Assembly (NCBI GenBank): GCA_027077325.1
Contig: JALTGF010000052.1
Location: forward strand, 1 to 34,402
Direction of reading: 5' to 3'
Origin: an archaeon
Lineage (GTDB): Archaea; Undinarchaeota; Undinarchaeia; Undinarchaeales; JALTGF01
DNA length: 34,402 nucleotides
Made by a program: the position numbers and the translations under genes. Under the pieces are notes generated by a model. The model ran no database searches, was not told the origin of the DNA, and saw only the letters and a list, made by a program, of their open reading frames with translations. Shown piece after piece: positions 3,001 to 34,382 of the stretch. Every line of letters begins with the position of its first letter. Within the stretch, counting starts at the first letter, position 1.

Positions 3001-4019
3001 GAATATCCAGTATTTCCAGAAGTATCTTGAACATAAACCTTAAATGTGTAAGTTCCAGAAGATAACCCTGTTTTGTTTTCCCAATAAACATTCCCGTTGT
3101 TATTATCAAATGTTTCAGATGCGCCGTTCCAAATCAAATTTACTGTTTGCGGATTGTCTTCAATAACTGTTGCATTTATAAAAATCCAATCCTTTTTGTA
3201 TGTCCCATTCAGGTCTGTATTTGGATTAAAATTGATTACTGGTGCGACTGTATCATCGCTAGTTTGTGCCCAGTCAACCAGTCCAGTTCCTCTGTTTCCA
3301 ACATCATCAACAGTGACTGTCTTTATTTGGTAAGAAGTACTTGGTTGAAGTCCGGTTGCATTAAAGTATTCATTTGTAGTGTTTTCTTTAAACACACCAT
3401 TAATCCAAATCTCCGTGTGGTCAAAATCTGAATCAGTTGGATTGTTCCATGTCCAATAAATCCAATTTGTCCCAACAGATTGCTCTCCTAAATTATAAAC
3501 AACGTGTGGTGGCGTAGTGTCAATTGTTAATGTTCTCGTTTGGCTGTAAACCAAGTTAGAATTGCTGTCTATGCACCTTATTTTCCATCTATAAGTTCCT
3601 TCGGTGGTTTCAGTGATAGGAACGCCATTGTATCTCCCATCTGCATTTACAGATAAGTTGCTCCATTTTTGTGAGCCATTATACCAGAGAGAGCATCCAA
3701 CAGTTGCATCATCTGGATCACTAACAGAAAAATTATGTATGTTTGTTGTTTCTTTTGTTTTGTAGTTATTTGGCGGGGAATACAAAGTTATTACAGGATA
3801 TGCACTCCCGGTCACTACAGGGGGGGTTGGCCCCGAATCTATTACTTTTGATGTTGTTGGGCTTGTTTTATTTGTGCCAATCCCTAAAAAATGGACTCCT
3901 AAAACGTGGTTTTGTGTTGGGCTTTTCTTAATTATGAAAAAAGAAGCATATATAGGGCTAACTAAAAGTAATGTAATCAATACTGTCACTGCCAAGAGTT
4001 TCGCTACATTTTTAGTCAT
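1..4019 (-). CDS. Large secreted/cell-surface repeat protein (Ig-like/fibronectin-III-like domains), 5' part only; continues off the left edge (>1330 aa)
   Basis: Absent from the ORF track because no stop lies in the window. ATG at 4019 is preceded by GGGTGA. The N-terminus MTKNVAKLLAVTVLITLLLVSPIYA looks like a signal peptide. Spot checks at ~3320, 2920, 1790, 620 and 59 give the same frame. Repeated modules include DTxAP, WIYWQWTNPSDADFDH...NATGLNP.TLYEI and GETWTCEVT. The protein is Thr/Asn-rich with many N-x-S/T sequons. Confidence 0.88.
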   Translation of the reverse strand, partial: MTKNVAKLLAVTVLITLLLVSPIYASFFIIKKSPTQNHVLGVHFLGIGTNKTSPTTSKVIDSGPTPPVVTGSAYPVITLYSPPNNYKTKETTNIHNFSVSDPDDATVGCSLWYNGSQKWSNLSVNADGRYNGVPITETTEGTYRWKIRCIDSNSNLVYSQTRTLTIDTTPPHVVYNLGEQSVGTNWIYWTWNNPTDSDFDHTEIWINGVFKENTTNEYFNATGLQPSTSYQIKTVTVDDVGNRGTGLVDWAQTSDDTVAPVINFNPNTDLNGTYKKDWIFINATVIEDNPQTVNLIWNGASETFDNNNGNVYWENKTGLSSGTYTFKVYVQDTSGNTGYSEERKVILDTTAPAGVSDLNETAIGETWIYWQWTNPSDADFDHVEVWLNGTFQENTTNEYFNATGLNPDTLYEIEIRSVDTAGNIGSFVNDTARTLTVDTLPTFDFVRINPSSPRTDDDLNCEFQYQDAENLTLPADITWYKNNIRDNEWDTTVTAQNNTLMSSNGPTASDTTAGETWTCEVTLHDRDGDVAQNSSSVTISGIPNTAPGVYITTPNNTYTRNTSPTIDYYFIDNENETGNATLYFDGNSVATEFNVQNNTPSTITPTSAQSEGTHTYYIEVYDGKDTGVSATQTITIDITAPNINYITYTDANGTYAKNWISVNVSATDANLDSVTLEWNGVNESFAQNAGDAYWTNKTGLASGTYTFRAWAEDLAENKVSTPLRTITLDNSYPGSISNLRETAVGTTWIYWQWTNPSDADFDHTEIWINGTHVADTSNPYYNATGLNPNTLYEIGTHTVDNVGNVNPNWVNDTARTLKVNHPPFFGWVNVTPDSPLSNQNLGCSFLADDNENNDFYANVTWYRDGSHLTNWDSTNIAVNNNTATNAPNAPSAADTQAGETWTCEVTVWDASGSNAMNGSETIQNVPNTKPGVYLVSPDNNSITNDNTPTHQFYFIDNENQTTSCTLYYNSSPLATNSTTFNNTVTDLTVPSSVLDGVYNWYVTCDDGISTAQSDVRTITVDTVAPSLYYNSNTDSNGTYSKDWVFINVTADDNVQLDSVVLEWNGVNETFDNHTGTLYWENKTGLAERTYTFKVYANDTAGSVVSTGERAVTLDRTPPVTVSNLDETARGTTWIYWQWTNPSDADFDHTEIWINGTHVADTSNPYYNATGLNPNTLYEIGTHTVDNVGNVNTFWINDTARTLKSQNHAPTLNLVDVIPDNPTSSDNLGCNFRFTDNENSTLLANVTWYRDGIHLNNWDQTNLAVTNNTLESTPTAPAYTDTSTGETWTCEVTVWDSAGASAMNGSETIQSSTPNTLPTIYITTRNSTIVSTSTPTIQFY
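447..626. repeat. 180-bp exact direct repeat, copy 1 (intragenic)
   Basis: Identical to 1602-1781; offset 1155 bp = 385 codons. Confidence 0.95.
1602..1781. repeat. 180-bp exact direct repeat, copy 2; a partial third copy lies at ~2875-2924
   Basis: Identical to 447-626. About 50 bp at 2875-2924 match with one substitution (offset 1143 bp). Confidence 0.95.
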
Positions 4020-4101
4020 TCACCCAAACATTGAGTTATTATATAGTAAAAGGGGTATTTATATTTTTGGATTTTTACCACTGGTCAGTTAAAAATATAA
4101 A

Positions 4102-4123
4102 ATCAGGTGGGGCCAGCGTGATA
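4102..4123 (-). repeat. Orphan copy of the tRNA-Phe 3' end (22 nt identical), next to a 9-bp hairpin
   Basis: atcaggtggggccagcgtgata at 4102-4123 equals 4206-4227. Inverted repeat ctaggaacc (4130-4138) / ggttcctag (4157-4165). Confidence 0.92.
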
Positions 4124-4211
4124 CCCTAGCTAGGAACCTGCTTTGCAATTTATCCCGGTTCCTAGAACCTCCAGTAATAGAAATTATGACTACAAACAAA
4201 AAGTTATCAGG

Positions 4212-4326
4212 TGGGGCCAGCGTGATATCCAGCCGCACTGAATGCACAAAAGCGGCAGTGACGGCGTTTGAACACGCGACACCCAGATCTTCAGTCTGGT
4301 GCTCTCCCGAGCTGAGCTATGGCCCC
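4212..4326 (-). tRNA. tRNA-Phe(GAA) with a 41-nt BHB intron at T-loop position 59/60 (4226-4266)
   Basis: Acceptor GGGGCCA/TGGCCCC, anticodon arm CCAGA-CTGAAGA-TCTGG, T arm GCGTG-TTCAAA|intron|T-CACGC. BHB: TTCA:TGGA helix, bulges AA|C and TA|T, flanked by GCCG:CGGC. Confidence 0.95.
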
Positions 4327-4490
4327 ATTTTATAACATCTCATTAGTCTCTCTTATTATATATTAGTATTATATCATGTGAGTGTTTTTTACTTTTCTTA
4401 AGTTGTTGTTCTTGATTTGTTAAATCTATCTTATATATCTTTTTAAACCTCAAACTTTATAAGTCCAAAACACCTAACTTTAAAAAGATT

Positions 4491-4718
4491 ATGGTAACTG
4501 CTTTTATTTTAATAACAACAAAATCTGGAAAAGAAAAGAAAATCCGAAACACGCTTCTAAAAATTCCAGAAGTTAAGGAAGCCCAGGTAGTTTACGGGGA
4601 TTTTGACCTGGTTGTAAAGCTAGAAGCAGACAGCTTGGACAAACTAAACAATATTGTGCTTTCAAAAATTAGAAAACTTTCAGATATCTCTGTAACTACA
4701 ACTTTAATCTCAATATAA
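4491..4718 (+). CDS. Stand-alone Lrp/AsnC ligand-binding (RAM) domain protein
   Basis: Pattern AFILI...IPEVKEAQVVYGDFDLVVKL...KIRKL..I..T.TLI; no HTH; TATA-like TTTATAA at ~4456. Confidence 0.88.
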   Translation: MVTAFILITTKSGKEKKIRNTLLKIPEVKEAQVVYGDFDLVVKLEADSLDKLNNIVLSKIRKLSDISVTTTLISI

Positions 4719-4722
4719 CCTT

Positions 4723-4827
4723 ATGAAACTTGAAGTGCTTCTTAAAATTCTTGCAGTGTTTATGTTAATTTTTATATTAGGATTTATTTTTGCTGCAATT
4801 CATGTATTTGTTTTAGGTGGCCACTAA
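4723..4827 (+). CDS. Putative small single-TM membrane protein (34 aa)
   Basis: MKLEVLLKILAVFMLIFILGFIFAAIHVFVLGGH starts 4 nt after the Lrp stop and fills the gap; below the ORF-track cutoff. Confidence 0.5.
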   Translation: MKLEVLLKILAVFMLIFILGFIFAAIHVFVLGGH

Positions 4828-4840
4828 TGTCTTTTTTTAA

Positions 4841-5257
4841 TTAAAGTACTTGTGAAAGTTTTCCTCTCATATCCTCAAGTGCAGCCTTCATGTTGTTTGT
4901 AAGTGCTTTAATCTTTTCCTTCTCAACCTGGATGTCTGAAATCCTTTTTTCACTGGTAATTATCTGGTACTCAAGTTCTTCTTTGTCTTTTTTGAGGCTT
5001 TTAATTGCCTCTTCTAGCTCTTTCTCTTCTTGCTCTCTCTTCTCAAACTCTCCTTTCAAGGTTTCCTTTGTTTTTTCAAGTGCAAGAATTGTTTCAGCAA
5101 GCTTTTGCTTTTTCTCTTCGAGAAGTGAGGTCATTCGCTCAAATCTTTCCTTTGCTTCCTGAATATTCAAAGCGTGCTCTACCTCGTGATTTAAGTTATC
5201 AATTACATTATCAATCTCTTCAACACCTATTGTTTCTAAATCCATATTTGTTCCCAT
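4841..5257 (-). CDS. Coiled-coil hypothetical protein
   Basis: E/K/L heptad-rich 138 aa; GAGGAGG RBS upstream. Confidence 0.8.
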   Translation of the reverse strand: MGTNMDLETIGVEEIDNVIDNLNHEVEHALNIQEAKERFERMTSLLEEKKQKLAETILALEKTKETLKGEFEKREQEEKELEEAIKSLKKDKEELEYQIITSEKRISDIQVEKEKIKALTNNMKAALEDMRGKLSQVL

Positions 5258-5301
5258 TCTAACCTCCTCATTTTCTAGTGATTAAAGTAATATAAAAATG
5301 T

Positions 5302-5712
5302 TTACCAAACTGAACTAACTGCGCTATAAATTATATGGGCCATTATTACAATTGGCAGCCCTAACTCAAAAAATGCAAGGCTAAACAAAACACCCATTAC
5401 AAGGCCATCTGCCGTAAATGGCGGCCCGTAAACAAGCCCCATATAAATCATATACAGGATAGCACTCCCTAAAAGGCCTGGAATTAGCCCAAAAGTCCCT
5501 ATTAAAAACATTAGCAGGAAAAGCCTAAAGAAAATTTCTTCAACAATTGGGCCAATTACGACAAACCATGTGCGCTTTCTCAAAATTATGAAGTTTCCTT
5601 GGTACATTATTGCCCTGATTGGGATTGCAATCCCTAAAGAGAGCAGAGCAAGGGCTATTGGAACCATCCACCAGGGTTCAAGCGTTGCAATTATATCTAT
5701 TGGATTTATCAT
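5302..5712 (-). CDS. CPBP (CAAX protease/Abi) family membrane protein with degenerate motifs
   Basis: Multi-TM; GPIVEEIFFR motif 1 present; FxxxH replaced by YMIYM and HxxxN by HIIYS. Confidence 0.75.
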   Translation of the reverse strand: MINPIDIIATLEPWWMVPIALALLSLGIAIPIRAIMYQGNFIILRKRTWFVVIGPIVEEIFFRLFLLMFLIGTFGLIPGLLGSAILYMIYMGLVYGPPFTADGLVMGVLFSLAFFELGLPIVIMAHIIYSAVSSVW

Positions 5713-5713
5713 T

Positions 5714-6172
5714 TTAGCCTATTTCTGATAAGAGATTATGCGTTATATGTGCAAAAATTGGGACTACTATGCCAAACTGCATAAATGCAAACCCCATAAT
5801 TATCCCAAATATTAGCCCGTCTGCAAGTTTAAGCCCGCCATATGGTATGTGTGCTATCCCAAAAAGAAGTGCGGATGCGGCAATTGCAATGATTGTTGAA
5901 TTAAAAAATGGAATTAGCAATGTTATAAGCGCGAACCTGAAAACAATCTCCTCAATTATTGGGCCCGTTACTATTGTGTGAAAAGCGCCAGTTCTCCAAC
6001 CACCCGACATTGGGCTTATAATAATCTGTGACATCAAAAAGCAGGAAATTACAAATGTAATAATTCCAAGAACTGCGCCTAGCTCAATTGGCAGAATATT
6101 AAACGTGTGGCCAAGCAAAGTAACTTCTGCGTATTTGCTTAGAATTTGCTCTAACTCTACTAAGATGTCCAT
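5714..6172 (-). CDS. CPBP family intramembrane glutamic/metallo-protease
   Basis: GPIIEEIVFR, FGIAH and AHITHN motifs; multi-TM. Confidence 0.88.
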   Translation of the reverse strand: MDILVELEQILSKYAEVTLLGHTFNILPIELGAVLGIITFVISCFLMSQIIISPMSGGWRTGAFHTIVTGPIIEEIVFRFALITLLIPFFNSTIIAIAASALLFGIAHIPYGGLKLADGLIFGIIMGFAFMQFGIVVPIFAHITHNLLSEIG

Positions 6173-6202
6173 CTTGTCACTACTACTAAGTGATAAAATT
6201 AG

Positions 6203-6217
6203 TATATAAACCTTTTC
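6203..6217 (-). promoter_or_regulatory. Archaeal BRE/TATA promoter for the CPBP genes
   Basis: Minus strand reads GAAAAGG-TTTATATA about 30 nt upstream of the ATG at 6172. Confidence 0.55.
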
Positions 6218-6218
6218 T

Positions 6219-6857
6219 TTATTTAATGATCCCCTTTAGTTCTCTTAAATTGTGGATAATGTAGTCCGGGCTTTTTTCTTTAATCTTTTCTTCACTTTCC
6301 CATTCATACTTTGAAAGAATTATACTTTTACACCCAACTTTTTTTGCTACTTCAACATCGTCTGCCTTGTCTCCAATGTAATACGTTTCCAAAGGGCTAC
6401 AATTTGCATTGCTAATCATGTTATCTATGGCCTCAGCTTTATTTTCAAATGGGCTATCTGCAGTTATTATTTTGTCAAATGTAGTCTTTTCAAAAAGTCC
6501 TTTTTCAAAGCAAGCATCAATAAATGCACGGTCCCCATTAGTCACTAGTGCAACATAATGGTTTTGCTCTCTCAGGTATTTTAAAATTTCATTTGCTTCT
6601 GGATCAACTCTTGAGAGTGCTAATGTTCCATCTTTCTTTAAGATTTTGTCAATTTGCTCTTTTGCCTTTTGAATTTCTTCTTCGCTCTCCCCAATTAATT
6701 CTCTTAAAACAACAATTGTCTTCGGTCCAAAATGGCTTGCAATTTCCTCATCTGTGTAAGATTTTCCAAACAATTTTATTGTTTCCTTAAATGCATGTAT
6801 CCAACTCTTTCTCGAATCTATAAGGACTCCATCAAAATCAAAAATTATGCATGCCAT
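6219..6857 (-). CDS. HAD-superfamily hydrolase (phosphoglycolate phosphatase-like)
   Basis: Motif I FDFDGVL, motif II VTN, motif IV IGDKADD. True start is probably ATG 6857 (MACIIFD, with AGGTG RBS), not 6917. Confidence 0.9.
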   Translation of the reverse strand: MACIIFDFDGVLIDSRKSWIHAFKETIKLFGKSYTDEEIASHFGPKTIVVLRELIGESEEEIQKAKEQIDKILKKDGTLALSRVDPEANEILKYLREQNHYVALVTNGDRAFIDACFEKGLFEKTTFDKIITADSPFENKAEAIDNMISNANCSPLETYYIGDKADDVEVAKKVGCKSIILSKYEWESEEKIKEKSPDYIIHNLRELKGIIK

Positions 6858-6878
6858 TATAAGAACACCTTTGAAATA

Positions 6879-7083
6879 TATGAGGCGCCGAGCCCAGTGG
6901 CTGTGGTCAGCCAGCACCCATCCTGCACTCGCTTCGCGAGGCAGGATTTGATTTTTATTTCAAGTACTTGCAAATGTATAAGCGCCGAGACCAGGATTTC
7001 CGCCCCTTTTCTTTTCGCGAAAAGAAAAGGTGTAGGGTAGCCCAAAAGAAAAGGCAAGGTATTACCCTTTTTTTATTATATAT
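6879..7083 (-). repeat. Two ~100-bp units, each with an orphan tRNA-Ser 3'-end copy plus a hairpin
   Basis: 6982-6999 matches 7090-7107 at 17/18 nt; 6879-6897 matches 7084-7102 at 18/19 nt. A perfect 26-nt palindrome lies at 7005-7030 and the hairpin atcctgc-actcgcttcgcgag-gcaggat at ~6920-6947. Confidence 0.85.
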
Positions 7084-7090
7084 TATGAGG

Positions 7091-7215
7091 CGCCGAGGCC
7101 AGGATTTACAGTTCGCAAGCGAACGTAAATGTCCGCTTCGCGCACATTTGAACCTGGAAGGGCAAAGCCCACCTGCTCTCAAGGCAGGCGCGTTACCTGG
7201 TTCCGCCACCTCGGC
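7091..7215 (-). tRNA. tRNA-Ser(TGA) with a 42-nt intron at T-loop 59/60 (7105-7146)
   Basis: Acceptor GCCGAGG/CCTCGGC, discriminator G, anticodon arm CCTGC-CTTGAGA-GCAGG, long variable arm GGGC-TTT-GCCC, T arm CCAGG-TTCAAA|intron|T-CCTGG. Relaxed BHB (TTCA:TGTA). Confidence 0.93.
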
Positions 7216-21048: not shown

Positions 21049-21173
21049 TGGGGGGCCCGACGGGATTTTCCTTCACATTGCCTATGCAATGTGTATTTTG
21101 AACCCGCGACCCCTTGGTTTCTTCGCCTTTCGGCTTAAAAGCCAAGTGCTCTCCCAGCCTGAGCTACGGGCCC
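21049..21173 (-). tRNA. tRNA-Lys(TTT) with two introns: 17 nt at 37/38 (21119-21135) and 31 nt at 59/60 (21066-21096); encoded CCA
   Basis: Acceptor GGGCCCG/CGGGCCC. Anticodon arm CTTGG-CTTTTA|AGCCGAAAGGCGAAGAA|A-CCAAG with BHB CTTT:GAAG. T arm GCGGG-TTCAAA|...CACATTGC-ATAG-GCAATGTG...GGAAAA|T-CCCGT. Confidence 0.94.
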
Positions 21174-34182: not shown

Positions 34183-34382
34183 AGCCCCGAGGGAGAGTTG
34201 AACTCCCGACCTCCTGTTTGCTTGAGCCTTATGCGAGCGCGCTTGCGCGCGAGCCATGCTATCTCGCGAAGCGAGTGTAGCATATTTTTCGCCAGCCTTT
34301 TCAGGATGGCGCAAGCACTTACCCGTTCACATGTTAAAAGGCTGTACAAGACAGGCGCTCTAGCCAGCTGAGCTATCGAGGC
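34183..34382 (-). tRNA. tRNA-Thr(TGT) with a long 126-nt canonical 37/38 intron (34219-34344)
   Basis: Acceptor GCCTCGA/TCGGGGC; CCTGT-CTTGTA|intron|A-ACAGG; strict BHB CTTG:CAAG with bulges TA|C and CA|A, flanked by AGCCTT:AAGGCT; GGGAG-TTCAACT-CTCCC. Confidence 0.93.

Follow-up and report, generated by a model that had tools for sequence, protein, structure and literature searches.

Two tRNA genes in the genome of a tiny, uncultivated undinarchaeon are followed by three short units. Each of them is probably a separate copy of a small non-coding insertion cassette, about 60-100 nt long, that forms a hairpin. These cassettes would have settled between the T-loop and the 3′ end of the tRNA genes and duplicated the gene end. 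We observed that the units belong to repeat families, fold in a conserved way and lie between duplicated target sequences. The families occupy different tRNA genes in different genomes, including one pair of filled and empty sites, and they occur independently of T-loop introns. The families, which move between tRNA genes in this archaeal group, seem to be undescribed; our literature search found no account of such cassettes.

Architecture of the two tRNA loci

The window, meaning the whole 34,402-nt stretch analysed, contains a tRNA-Phe(GAA) gene (4326-4212, minus strand) and a tRNA-Ser(UGA) gene (7215-7091, minus strand). Direct reading confirmed the common architecture proposed in the initial annotation: a 59/60 intron, then units made of an AT-rich stretch, a hairpin and a copy of the tRNA 3′ end (an orphan). 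One unit follows tRNA-Phe and two follow tRNA-Ser. The proposed unit spacings of 104 nt (Phe) and 108 and 97 nt (Ser) agreed with the repeat coordinates. The features, with families as named below, are as follows.

4267-4326, minus: tRNA-Phe(GAA) 5′ exon, positions 1-59; direct reading, partial Rfam tRNA match at 4256-4326 (27 bits)
4226-4266, minus: tRNA-Phe 59/60 intron, 41 nt; RNA fold z = -2.28
4212-4225, minus: tRNA-Phe 3′ exon (60-73); complement of the 5′ acceptor strand
4124-4205, minus: family C cassette behind tRNA-Phe; T-rich start, then a 9-bp hairpin (stem 4165-4157 with 4138-4130)
4102-4123, minus: Phe orphan, 3′ end copy; exact 22-nt repeat of 4206-4227, spacing 104
7147-7215, minus: tRNA-Ser(UGA) 5′ exon; direct reading, partial Rfam match at 7160-7215 (24.4 bits)
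7105-7146, minus: tRNA-Ser 59/60 intron, 42 nt; fold z = -2.41
7091-7104, minus: tRNA-Ser 3′ exon; direct reading
6997-7090, minus: family B cassette behind tRNA-Ser; core 6998-7067, long T/A-rich hairpin, fold z = -2.67
6983-6996, minus: Ser orphan 1, copy of positions 60-73; 1 mismatch in 14, spacing 108
6898-6982, minus: family A cassette behind tRNA-Ser; core 6898-6964, model R1 94.3 bits, fold z = -3.70, covariation
6879-6897, minus: Ser orphan 2; truncated 3′ end copy (about 6897-6886) and a trailer like that of the functional gene, 97 nt beyond orphan 1
34256-34283, plus: family-A-like hairpin module in a tRNA-Ala intron; partial R1 match, E = 7.4e-4 and 8.6e-5

ARAGORN called neither gene, and Rfam matched both only partially and below threshold, in their 5′ parts, as expected of tRNAs with T-loop introns. 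The final six letters of the tRNA-Phe intron are compatible with the pairing expected of a bulge-helix-bulge (BHB) site at 59/60. The cassette behind tRNA-Phe starts with a run of five T, which we take to be an archaeal terminator. Behind tRNA-Ser, family B comes first and family A second. Orphan 2, the distal one, was the more decayed of the two Ser orphans, and its flank holds an exact 14-mer (6879/7084) common to the end and trailer of the functional Ser gene. The stronger decay and the trailer-like flank of the distal orphan fit a stack in which the newest unit adjoins the gene.

For each of the 29 curated tRNA genes of the genome, we searched the adjoining 400 nt for a recurrence of its terminal 14 nt at either end, allowing up to 2 mismatches. 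A downstream recurrence of the gene's 3′ end was present at 4 of the 29, and an upstream recurrence of its 5′ end at 2 of the 29. Control scans with the ends of other tRNAs gave 7/700 and 8/640 matches, all of them neighbouring real tRNA genes or register shifts of the same orphan, leaving zero independent chance matches.

The chance that the units are an assembly artefact of the metagenome bin is negligible. The genome, a MAG, is split over 186 contigs, and the Ser array is bridged by none of the Logan contigs listed. However, a Logan contig from a second assembler covers 3950-4336 at the Phe locus without any difference, the same architecture occurs in at least seven other genomes, and units that differ in sequence are neither collapsed nor expanded repeats. 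Among the contigs of one study that cover the region, no allele with fewer units (no joint) was found, a point against the insertion-cassette reading as regards movement in this population.

Three dispersed families with conserved folding

The hairpins had been described as unique. This holds within the window, but each of the three spacers is a complete member of a different repeat family (here named A, B and C), and other members follow further tRNA genes, both in this genome and in relatives from its order. The spacer of Ser unit 2 (family A) matches cassettes at six more sites in the genome: one each after tRNA-Gly, tRNA-Pro and tRNA-Gln, two after tRNA-Leu, and one that precedes tRNA-Glu. 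Across 61 genomes, model R1, built for family A, detected the family in 8, most of them from the same order. In two relatives (G001 and G002), tRNA-Ile, tRNA-Pro, tRNA-Glu and another tRNA are followed by family B homologues. Family C lies 9-10 nt behind the tRNA-Arg genes of the same two genomes, and also occurs in G004 and, by eye, behind the tRNA-Phe of G005.

Family A has a conserved A-rich lead, hairpin 1, a linker and hairpin 2, and both helices are kept with strong covariation. In 24 copies, counted on an alignment fitted to model R1, 97.4% of cells were paired and 16 of 18 pairs had both-sided changes. These values were reached in 0 of 500 shuffles, and slid controls paired in 27-47% of cells. 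G-T wobbles outnumbered A-C cells (12 vs 2), which points to folding of the tRNA-sense strand.

Conserved structure would also be explained by a host function, which counts against the insertion-cassette reading. The cassettes would then be RNA or transcript-end modules that serve the host (as terminators, processing signals, stabilisers or trailer small RNAs), selected and merely shuffled by recombination, with the orphan tail supplying a tRNA-like 3′ end. Consistent with this are the conservation over the order and the strand-specific wobble excess, the AT-rich starts with T runs directly behind the tRNA, and some family A copies with an end that coincides exactly with a start codon or the 5′ end of a tRNA. 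A precedent exists in E. coli, where the tyrT-distal repeats give RtT RNA. We nonetheless consider this reading unlikely. Copy number and position vary between sister genomes, 23 of the 29 tRNAs here have no cassette (a loose count), and the modules found inside introns and in 5′ cassettes can be reversed in orientation. In addition, orphans decay and one of them, on contig C181, is foreign; no Rfam family, RtT included, matches the cassettes.

Some copies of the families lie outside tRNA trailers. Introns of some relatives contain cassette-like modules, and the module in the window, which is antisense to tRNA-Ala, lies in the 126-nt intron in the anticodon loop of that gene. A family A copy in G004 is flanked by a 23-nt repeat of a protein gene's last codons, and one in the distant genome G053 by a 23-24-nt repeat. 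Seven family A copies (in G003, G008 and G010) stand in front of ORFs and have no flanking repeat; these may be something else, such as a regulatory leader.

Duplicated targets, filled sites and empty sites

The tRNA-Phe gene of G009 is followed by a 109-nt insert, made of an 86-nt cassette and a 23-nt repeat. The same site is empty in G006, with nearly identical flanks. Occupation also differed at tRNA-Ile, which has family B in G002 vs family A in G001, and at the tRNA-Arg genes, which carry a cassette in G001 and G002 but none in this genome. In G001 and G002 together, a copy of the tRNA's own 3′ end lay downstream of 13 of 67 genes, and a copy of its own 5′ end upstream of 4 of 67.

Repeat starts clustered 15-17 or 21 nt before the tRNA end, and repeat ends varied from 0 to 36 nt past it. 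In tandem arrays of one family, the repeat extended exactly into the conserved start of the next cassette. Relic T-loop pieces were observed at the hairpin ends of cassettes. The C181 orphan, which lies behind tRNA-Pro, had 11/12 matches to tRNA-Val vs 9/12 to the neighbouring gene.

A repeat that starts in the T-loop and extends through the tRNA 3′ end is reportedly the classic T-loop sublocation. The orphans might accordingly be read as worn attL/attR scars of ordinary viruses or plasmids that used an integrase and recombined in the T-loop, with internal deletion leaving the 60-100 nt between the repeats. The genome does have two tyrosine recombinases; their PF00589 matches are confined to contigs C146 and C74, in agreement with the earlier statement that the window contains no integrase. 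In G002, a 430-aa integrase-like ORF lies 75 nt behind tRNA-Gly(UCC). Such scars are nevertheless a distinctly improbable source of the units. The whole 60-100 nt between the repeats is conserved at many tRNAs with compensatory changes, unlike random deletion remnants. One family sits at no fewer than six tRNA species with differing 3′ ends, which is unexpected of a site-specific element carrying its own att copy. Furthermore, 10 of the 13 genomes of the order have no Phage_integrase match, and the G009/G006 pair differs by exactly 109 nt.

Independence from T-loop introns

The units had been linked to the 59/60 introns, as an intron-swap system or as alternative or trans-spliced 3′ exons. We observed no such association: orphans followed 2 of 8 tRNAs with T-loop introns vs 2 of 21 others, or 3 of 8 vs 3 of 21 on a looser count (Fisher P = 0.30). 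Nor were they specific to intron-bearing tRNAs, since orphans accompany 13 of 67 tRNAs that have no T-loop intron in the two relatives. The suggested kinship of spacers and introns found no support by BLAST, in which the eight T-loop introns of the genome matched no cassette. The tRNA-Ser intron has the intron of tRNA-Ser(CGA) on contig C40 as its sole homologue. Among the orthologues inspected, the intron occurred in 0 of 8 for Phe and 0 of 6 for Ser, and the intron-free tRNA-Phe of G005 carries a family C cassette. Orphans that are as common without T-loop introns, introns unlike the cassettes and intron-free orthologues leave the intron-swap and spare-exon readings unsupported. Within the insertion-cassette reading, the 59/60 introns of tRNA-Phe and tRNA-Ser would be separate, lineage-specific gains.

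Splicing of the units through BHB motifs, or a swap of intron plus 3′ exon, is very improbable overall. By our own reading, the right end of Ser unit 1 could pair at 3 of the 4 T-loop positions needed for a 59/60 BHB, and the G009 Phe cassette fits 4 of 4 with one wobble allowed. Cassette-like modules inside relatives' introns and the intron-gain model of Sugahara et al. 2012 (PMC3293823) also lend themselves to this reading. On the other hand, the right end of the Phe unit is a poor partner for the T-loop (2 wobbles and 1 mismatch against a single Watson-Crick pair), five T stand between the gene and that unit, orphans decay, and Ser orphan 2 and the Val-like C181 orphan would misfit the acceptor stem. 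The units may be small RNAs or decoys.

The initial annotation had also placed the end of identity 2-3 nt inside the intron. This is literally correct (the last 2 nt for Phe, 3 for Ser), but descent from an intron-bearing copy does not follow, because the shared letters are equally the A-rich 3′ part of an uninterrupted T-loop or the family's conserved right end. Similarly, its picture of a stacked record survives as a stack of tiny elements, too small for ordinary prophage att pairs, with three repeat families and a decayed distal orphan; intron replacement is not supported.

A proposed route of insertion

In the insertion-cassette reading, a cassette would enter the tRNA gene at the DNA level. 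Its hairpin end would be joined within the T-loop, with a position between 53 and 60 that differs by family, and its AT-rich end to the gene's 3′ terminus or slightly beyond. The sequence enclosed by these two joints (15-23 nt, sometimes more) would thereby be doubled. The gene-side copy would keep the tRNA intact, and the other copy, stranded behind the cassette as an orphan, would decay. Repeated insertions would stack, the newest adjoining the gene.

For the movement itself, we lean slightly towards copying between tRNA loci by recombination or template switching, with exit in the recipient's trailer and return at the T-loop, which is conserved across tRNAs. The competing model would use a trans-acting nuclease or recombinase with a staggered cut of about 22-23 bp. 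Repeats of 22-23 nt made up 8 of roughly 26 measured by eye, including non-tRNA and 5′ cases; this recurrence looks like a molecular ruler and argues against the template-switching preference. Repeat lengths overall, from 14 to 62 nt, argue against a ruler.

No recombinase or transposase was consistently encoded among the genomes checked. In a census of incomplete MAGs, in which viruses and plasmids are not binned, Phage_integrase matches occurred in 7 of the 17 genomes from the phylum, in only 3 of the 13 from the order, and not in a 98%-complete member; Cas1 was found in 1 of the 17, Y1 transposase in 0 and Y2/IS91 in 1. This inconsistent presence weakens any enzyme-driven version.

Comparison with known systems

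The att duplications of tyrosine-integrase elements (SSV-type and pNOB8-type archaeal elements) resemble our units in the direct repeat from the T-loop through the tRNA 3′ end, in the pairing of an intact gene with an orphan tail across the insert, and in stacking by repeated insertion. In contrast, the inserts here are 60-240 nt, non-coding and without an integrase, and most genomes of the order have no Phage_integrase match. One family here also uses many tRNA species, and the families occur at a protein-gene end, before ORFs and inside introns as well.

Sugahara et al. 2012 (PMC3293823) proposed that tRNA introns are gained by integration of an intron-carrying attP, in a case with a 1.8-kb recombinase-encoding insert and a 5′ fragment. 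Their model shares with our loci tRNA fragments beside intact genes and new introns tied to mobile DNA insertion in one lineage. It differs in that our units are tiny and non-coding and the Phe and Ser introns contain no cassette sequence.

The 3′ halves of Nanoarchaeum split tRNAs likewise have a promoter-like stretch, a structured leader and a tRNA 3′ part, but the orphans here cover only positions 53/60 to 73, decay and adjoin a complete gene. Integron attC cassettes also form arrays with individual hairpins, a shared short core and the newest unit proximal, whereas the cassettes here carry no ORF.

MITEs and REP/BIME-type palindromes are similarly small, non-coding, multi-copy and hairpin-forming, lie at gene ends in compact genomes and vary in presence between relatives. 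By alignment inspection, the cassettes here differ in having no terminal inverted repeats and dissimilar ends, one AT-rich and one a GC hairpin. Their flanking repeats are much longer (15-23 nt or more), their orientation relative to the tRNA is fixed, and no autonomous partner was found.

The E. coli tyrT-distal 178-bp repeats (RtT RNA) are also units behind a tRNA gene, each ending in a copy of the tRNA 3′ end. There, a single locus holds the same unit repeated in tandem, whereas neighbouring units here belong to unrelated families dispersed over many tRNA genes and genomes.

Hairpin units behind tRNA-Phe and tRNA-Ser

The initial annotation had described units behind tRNA-Phe and tRNA-Ser, each made of an AT-rich stretch, a hairpin (the cassette) and an orphan, i.e. 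a stray copy of the tRNA 3' end. We confirmed this architecture at both genes, with repeats at spacings of 104, 108 and 97 nt. The order was the same in each of the three spacers, running from the AT-rich stretch through the hairpin to the tail copy. The features were as follows.

4326-4212, minus strand: tRNA-Phe(GAA), with a 41-nt intron at 4266-4226, after position 59
4123-4102, minus strand: Phe orphan, identical over 22 nt to the gene end at 4227-4206, spacing 104 nt
7215-7091, minus strand: tRNA-Ser(UGA), with a 42-nt intron at 7146-7105, in the same place as in tRNA-Phe
6996-6983, minus strand: Ser orphan 1, 1 mismatch in 14, spacing 108 nt
about 6897-6886, minus strand: Ser orphan 2, a further 97 nt on, sharing the trailer of the tRNA-Ser gene too

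RNA fold z-scores were -0.95 for the Phe unit, -2.67 for Ser unit 1 and -3.70 for Ser unit 2. At the Phe locus, a second assembler reproduced positions 3950-4336 exactly. No bridging contig for the Ser array was found among those listed from the second assembly, and contigs from one public study aligned to the region gave no joint across any unit; no RNA run was listed among the public runs matching the stretch. Loose contig ends at 6899 and 6934 were other copies of the hairpin family found in Ser unit 2 (family A).

The window carries tRNAs for Phe, Ser, Asp, Lys, Tyr and Ala and a 5S-linked Asp/Lys pair. ARAGORN at default settings reported 1/7 of the window tRNAs; neither tRNA-Phe nor tRNA-Ser was reported, and Rfam matched only the 5' parts of these two, below threshold. 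The remaining tRNAs were hidden from ARAGORN because their introns lie at non-standard places.

Duplicated tRNA ends compared with chance

We scanned the 769-kb genome to which the window belongs (G000) for exact repeats of at least 13 nt lying 40-600 nt apart. After a composition filter 84 remained, 5 of them on tRNA ends: both window loci, tRNA-Gly on contig C182 (36 nt, 3' end plus flank) and, at the 5' end, tRNA-Leu on C6 (22 nt) and a tRNA on C1 (14 nt). Among 29 curated tRNA genes, the gene's own 3' end recurred downstream in 4 and its own 5' end upstream in 2. When the ends of other tRNAs were used as a control, the counts were 7/700 and 8/640, and all of these were real neighbouring genes or register shifts. 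Two related genomes (G001 and G002) together had a downstream 3'-end copy at 13/67 tRNA genes and an upstream 5'-end copy at 4/67. The 5' cassettes of G000, at C1:358-443 (L008) and C6:5346-5481 (L009), were mirror images: an orphan comprising the initial 14 nt of the tRNA, alone or together with the 8 nt upstream of it, was followed by hairpins, the AT-rich stretch and the gene.

Cassette families and their fold

The cassettes belonged to three repeat families: family C behind tRNA-Phe, and families B (unit 1) and A (unit 2) behind tRNA-Ser. In G000, spacers homologous to Ser unit 2 lay behind tRNA-Gly (C182), tRNA-Pro(UGG) (C181) and the intronless tRNA-Gln (C46). A family A tandem pair followed tRNA-Leu (C104), another copy lay directly upstream of tRNA-Glu(CUC) (C19), and partial copies were observed behind tRNA-Val and on C113. 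A search with a model of the family (R1) gave 7 full copies in this genome. In their consensus, an A-rich lead precedes two hairpins joined by a 7-nt linker, the first of 10-12 bp and variable at its tip, the second of 6 bp; 8/18 pairs were compensatory.

Across 24 family A copies from 8 genomes, in an alignment itself fitted to the model, 97.4% of cells were paired and both-sided change occurred in 16/18 pairs. None of 500 shuffles reached the observed value, and slid controls gave 27-47%. G-T cells exceeded A-C cells (12 vs 2), which suggests that the tRNA-sense strand would be the one that folds.

Family B followed tRNA-Ile and tRNA-Glu in G002 and, in G001, tRNA-Pro(GGG) plus one further tRNA. 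Its conservation starts directly behind the discriminator base and reaches its right end. Family C was present in G004, followed tRNA-Arg genes at a distance of 9-10 nt (both of them in G002, one in G001), and was recognised by eye behind tRNA-Phe of G005. The tRNA targets were Ser, Pro, Gly, Gln, Leu, Cys and Ile for family A, Ser, Ile, Pro and Glu for family B, and Phe and Arg for family C.

No curated Rfam 15 model, RtT included, matched any cassette, and in the window only tRNA and 5S rRNA reached gathering scores. E-value searches of the loci returned a partial tmRNA-model match (L001) and a Plastid-ycf2 match on a tRNA (L048), both far below gathering. Checked by eye, the motifs of box C/D, H/ACA or tRNA-like RNAs do not fit the cassette, and these readings were rejected. 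An outer helix that RNAfold modelled around the first family A hairpin was, by eye, out of register across copies. An 18-mer of the family A lead had 10 viral and at least 117 genome exact matches in unrelated organisms, which we regard as AT-rich chance matches; R1 matched 0/90 of these loci (10 viral and 80 genome loci among the matches listed).

Presence and absence in relatives

The tRNA-Phe surroundings of two genomes of the same genus, G009 and G006, were near-identical and differed by a 109-nt insert in G009. This insert consisted of an 86-nt cassette and a 23-nt repeat reaching from the T-loop to 8 nt beyond the gene. At orthologous tRNA-Ile genes, G001 carried family A and G002 family B. 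The tRNA-Arg genes of G000 were empty. A search of metagenome contigs for strain-level relatives via the downstream HAD-like gene returned just one, at 26% identity.

Family A was also found away from tRNAs. It lay at a protein-gene end in G004, between 23-nt repeats of the final codons, and in the distant genome G053 between 23-24-nt repeats. Seven copies in G003, G008 and G010 lay upstream of ORFs and had no repeats. In these three genomes, a sub-family sharing the family A fold stood directly before ORF start codons, with no repeats at its flanks, at L015, L016, L017, L022, L027, L030 and L032. Several of its copies had one more helix on the outside and a lengthened second hairpin with a TATA-like loop. 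This sub-family may represent a leader or a promoter module and not a recent insertion.

Mechanism and candidate enzymes

The initial annotation's statement that the window holds no integrase was borne out by a search for Phage_integrase (PF00589). This domain was found in 7/17 genomes of the phylum and 3/13 of the order. Cas1 was found in 1/17, Y1 transposase in 0/17 and Y2/IS91 in 1/17 genomes of the phylum, so no candidate enzyme was consistent. We read the units as insertion cassettes with duplication of the gene end, which we consider rather probable, and we favour an enzyme-free route only slightly. By that route, a cassette at one locus would be copied to another through recombination or template switching, with conserved patches as the sites.

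Several features fit copying between loci. The hairpin end always adjoined the orphan and the AT-rich end always the working gene, with 5' cassettes as the mirror image. Repeats started at family-specific points inside the T-loop (position 53 or 57-60), at a distance of 15-17 or 21 nt from where the tRNA ends, and themselves ended 0 to 36 nt beyond the gene. In same-family tandems (C104 of G000; G001:C20) the repeat extended exactly up to the next cassette's conserved start, and some hairpin ends retained a T-loop relic. The orphan behind tRNA-Pro (C181) was of the tRNA-Val type, and a truncated family A copy lay at tRNA-Val. Repeat lengths, read by eye, ranged from 14 to 62 nt; 22-23 nt recurred in 8 of about 26, non-tRNA and 5' cases included. 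This recurrence suggests a ruler, which argues against such copying between loci.

Two enzyme-bearing loci were observed. On C146 of G000 (135-2176, L036), a 292-aa XerA-like tyrosine recombinase extends over the beginning of a 393-aa IS91-family transposase, the sole Y2 transposase match in the 17 phylum genomes. The recombinase scored under the cut-offs of both XerA and integron integrase. IS91 may target GTTC. The contig is 2.5 kb with genome-like GC, and the pair may be either a genuine insertion sequence or DNA binned here in error. On G002:C28, at about 1460-2940 (L141, L145), a tRNA-Gly(UCC) with an intron is followed after 75 nt, in the same strand sense, by a divergent integrase-like ORF of 430 aa that includes a zinc ribbon, a layout like that of pNOB8. 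A second att copy was looked for as far as the contig start and not found.

Relation to T-loop introns

Introns at position 59/60 occurred in 8/29 tRNA genes of G000: Phe, Ser (two), Lys(UUU), Pro(UGG), Glu (two) and Leu(UAG). Besides tRNA-Phe and tRNA-Ser(UGA), such genes lie at 21052-21173 of the window (minus strand) and on contigs C19, C40 and C181. Only one T-loop intron was seen in G001 (tRNA-Asp). The G000 introns mostly had a common short end motif able to pair with the T-loop, and tRNA-Lys(UUU) had an additional intron near the anticodon. The eight introns had no match except between the two Ser introns. The introns were absent from all inspected orthologues of tRNA-Phe (n = 8) and tRNA-Ser (n = 6), with one Phe and two Ser matches outside those listed. 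From this distribution, G000 looks like a case of lineage-specific burst of T-loop intron gain.

One of the readings offered in the initial annotation was a stacked record of tiny elements replacing intron and 3' exon. The tiny insertion units were supported; the tie to T-loop introns was not. Orphans accompanied 2 (loosely 3) of the 8 intron-bearing genes vs 2 (loosely 3) of the 21 others (P = 0.30, Fisher), and a 59/60 intron was present in 0/13 orphan-bearing tRNAs of G001 and G002. The 2-3 letters of the orphans taken for intron ends are indeed shared. As a sign of an intron they did not hold up, since an uninterrupted T-loop or the family's right end suffices to explain them.

In bulge-helix-bulge (BHB) geometry, T-loop positions 54-57 pair with four letters of the intervening sequence, those just ahead of its final two. 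Read by eye, the real introns paired at 4/4 with one wobble (Phe) and 3/4 (Ser). The Phe orphan unit, also by eye, formed 1 Watson-Crick pair and 2 wobbles, and Ser unit 1 paired at 3/4. A spare or trans-spliced 3' exon, as had been proposed, should complete the acceptor and T stems of the 5' piece. Two orphans speak against this reading: Ser orphan 2 is mismatched and truncated, and the C181 orphan fits tRNA-Val, not its neighbour.

Modules inside introns

Cassette-like modules were also found within introns. A family-B-like module lay within the ~100-nt 59/60 intron of tRNA-Gly in G010 (BLAST E = 2.3e-10), and another within an anticodon-region intron of tRNA-Leu in G003 (BLAST E = 0.006). 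Family-A-like modules lay within introns of tRNA-Ala in the window, tRNA-Pro in G001 and a tRNA in G004. All five were in reverse orientation relative to the tRNA (5/5).

These reversed modules in five introns, and the 8/29 T-loop introns of G000 vs the one in G001, hint that hairpin cassettes could be vehicles of tRNA intron gain and of split-looking tRNA genes, which we regard as unlikely. Module families would spread among tRNA genes by breakage and rejoining at conserved T- and D-loops. Where the gene end was duplicated, a flanking cassette and orphan would result; where it was not, and a splice motif still formed in the RNA, a new intron would result.

The tRNA-Ala gene with its 126-nt intron was present at 34183-34382 of the window and near-identical at C40:1124-1323 of G000, at a contig end and a contig start. 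Probably the two contigs overlap or the gene is duplicated.

Significance and comparison with known systems

Cassettes of 60-100 nt bring within reach of tests the routes by which tRNA genes of archaea come to be interrupted, split or flanked by fragments. With provable gain and loss at tRNA ends, and modules in introns too, they offer a concrete test object. Element turnover is a mechanistic puzzle in genomes below 1 Mb where neither a recombinase nor a transposase is consistently encoded. It points either to an enzyme that has escaped recognition or to recombination that makes use of conserved tRNA loops. Orphans and T-loop introns also defeat standard tRNA finders, so the tRNA sets of such genomes are under- or mis-called.

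No description of such tiny cassettes surfaced in a full-text literature search. In the portion available to us, van der Gulik et al. 2023 (PMC9897764) treat tRNA fragments only beside 9-23-kb elements, and the conclusion of a 2026 preprint on Asgard tRNA introns states that how introns arrive is still unknown. The closest model, judging from the available part of Sugahara et al. 2012 (PMC3293823), is their integration model, in which tRNA introns are gained via integration.

Like MITEs, the cassettes were multi-copy (7 copies of family A) and present or absent at orthologous sites (G009/G006). Unlike MITEs, they had no terminal inverted repeats, the ends being dissimilar on inspection of two family A alignments (A1/A2), and no autonomous relative was found. 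Unlike integrase-borne elements, the inserts measured 59-241 nt without an integrase gene, and each family occurred at several tRNA species instead of one target. A direct repeat that starts in the T-loop and extends across the 3' end of the tRNA was shared with integrase-mediated attL/attR, and T-loop att duplication by integrase-borne elements is the closest known kind.
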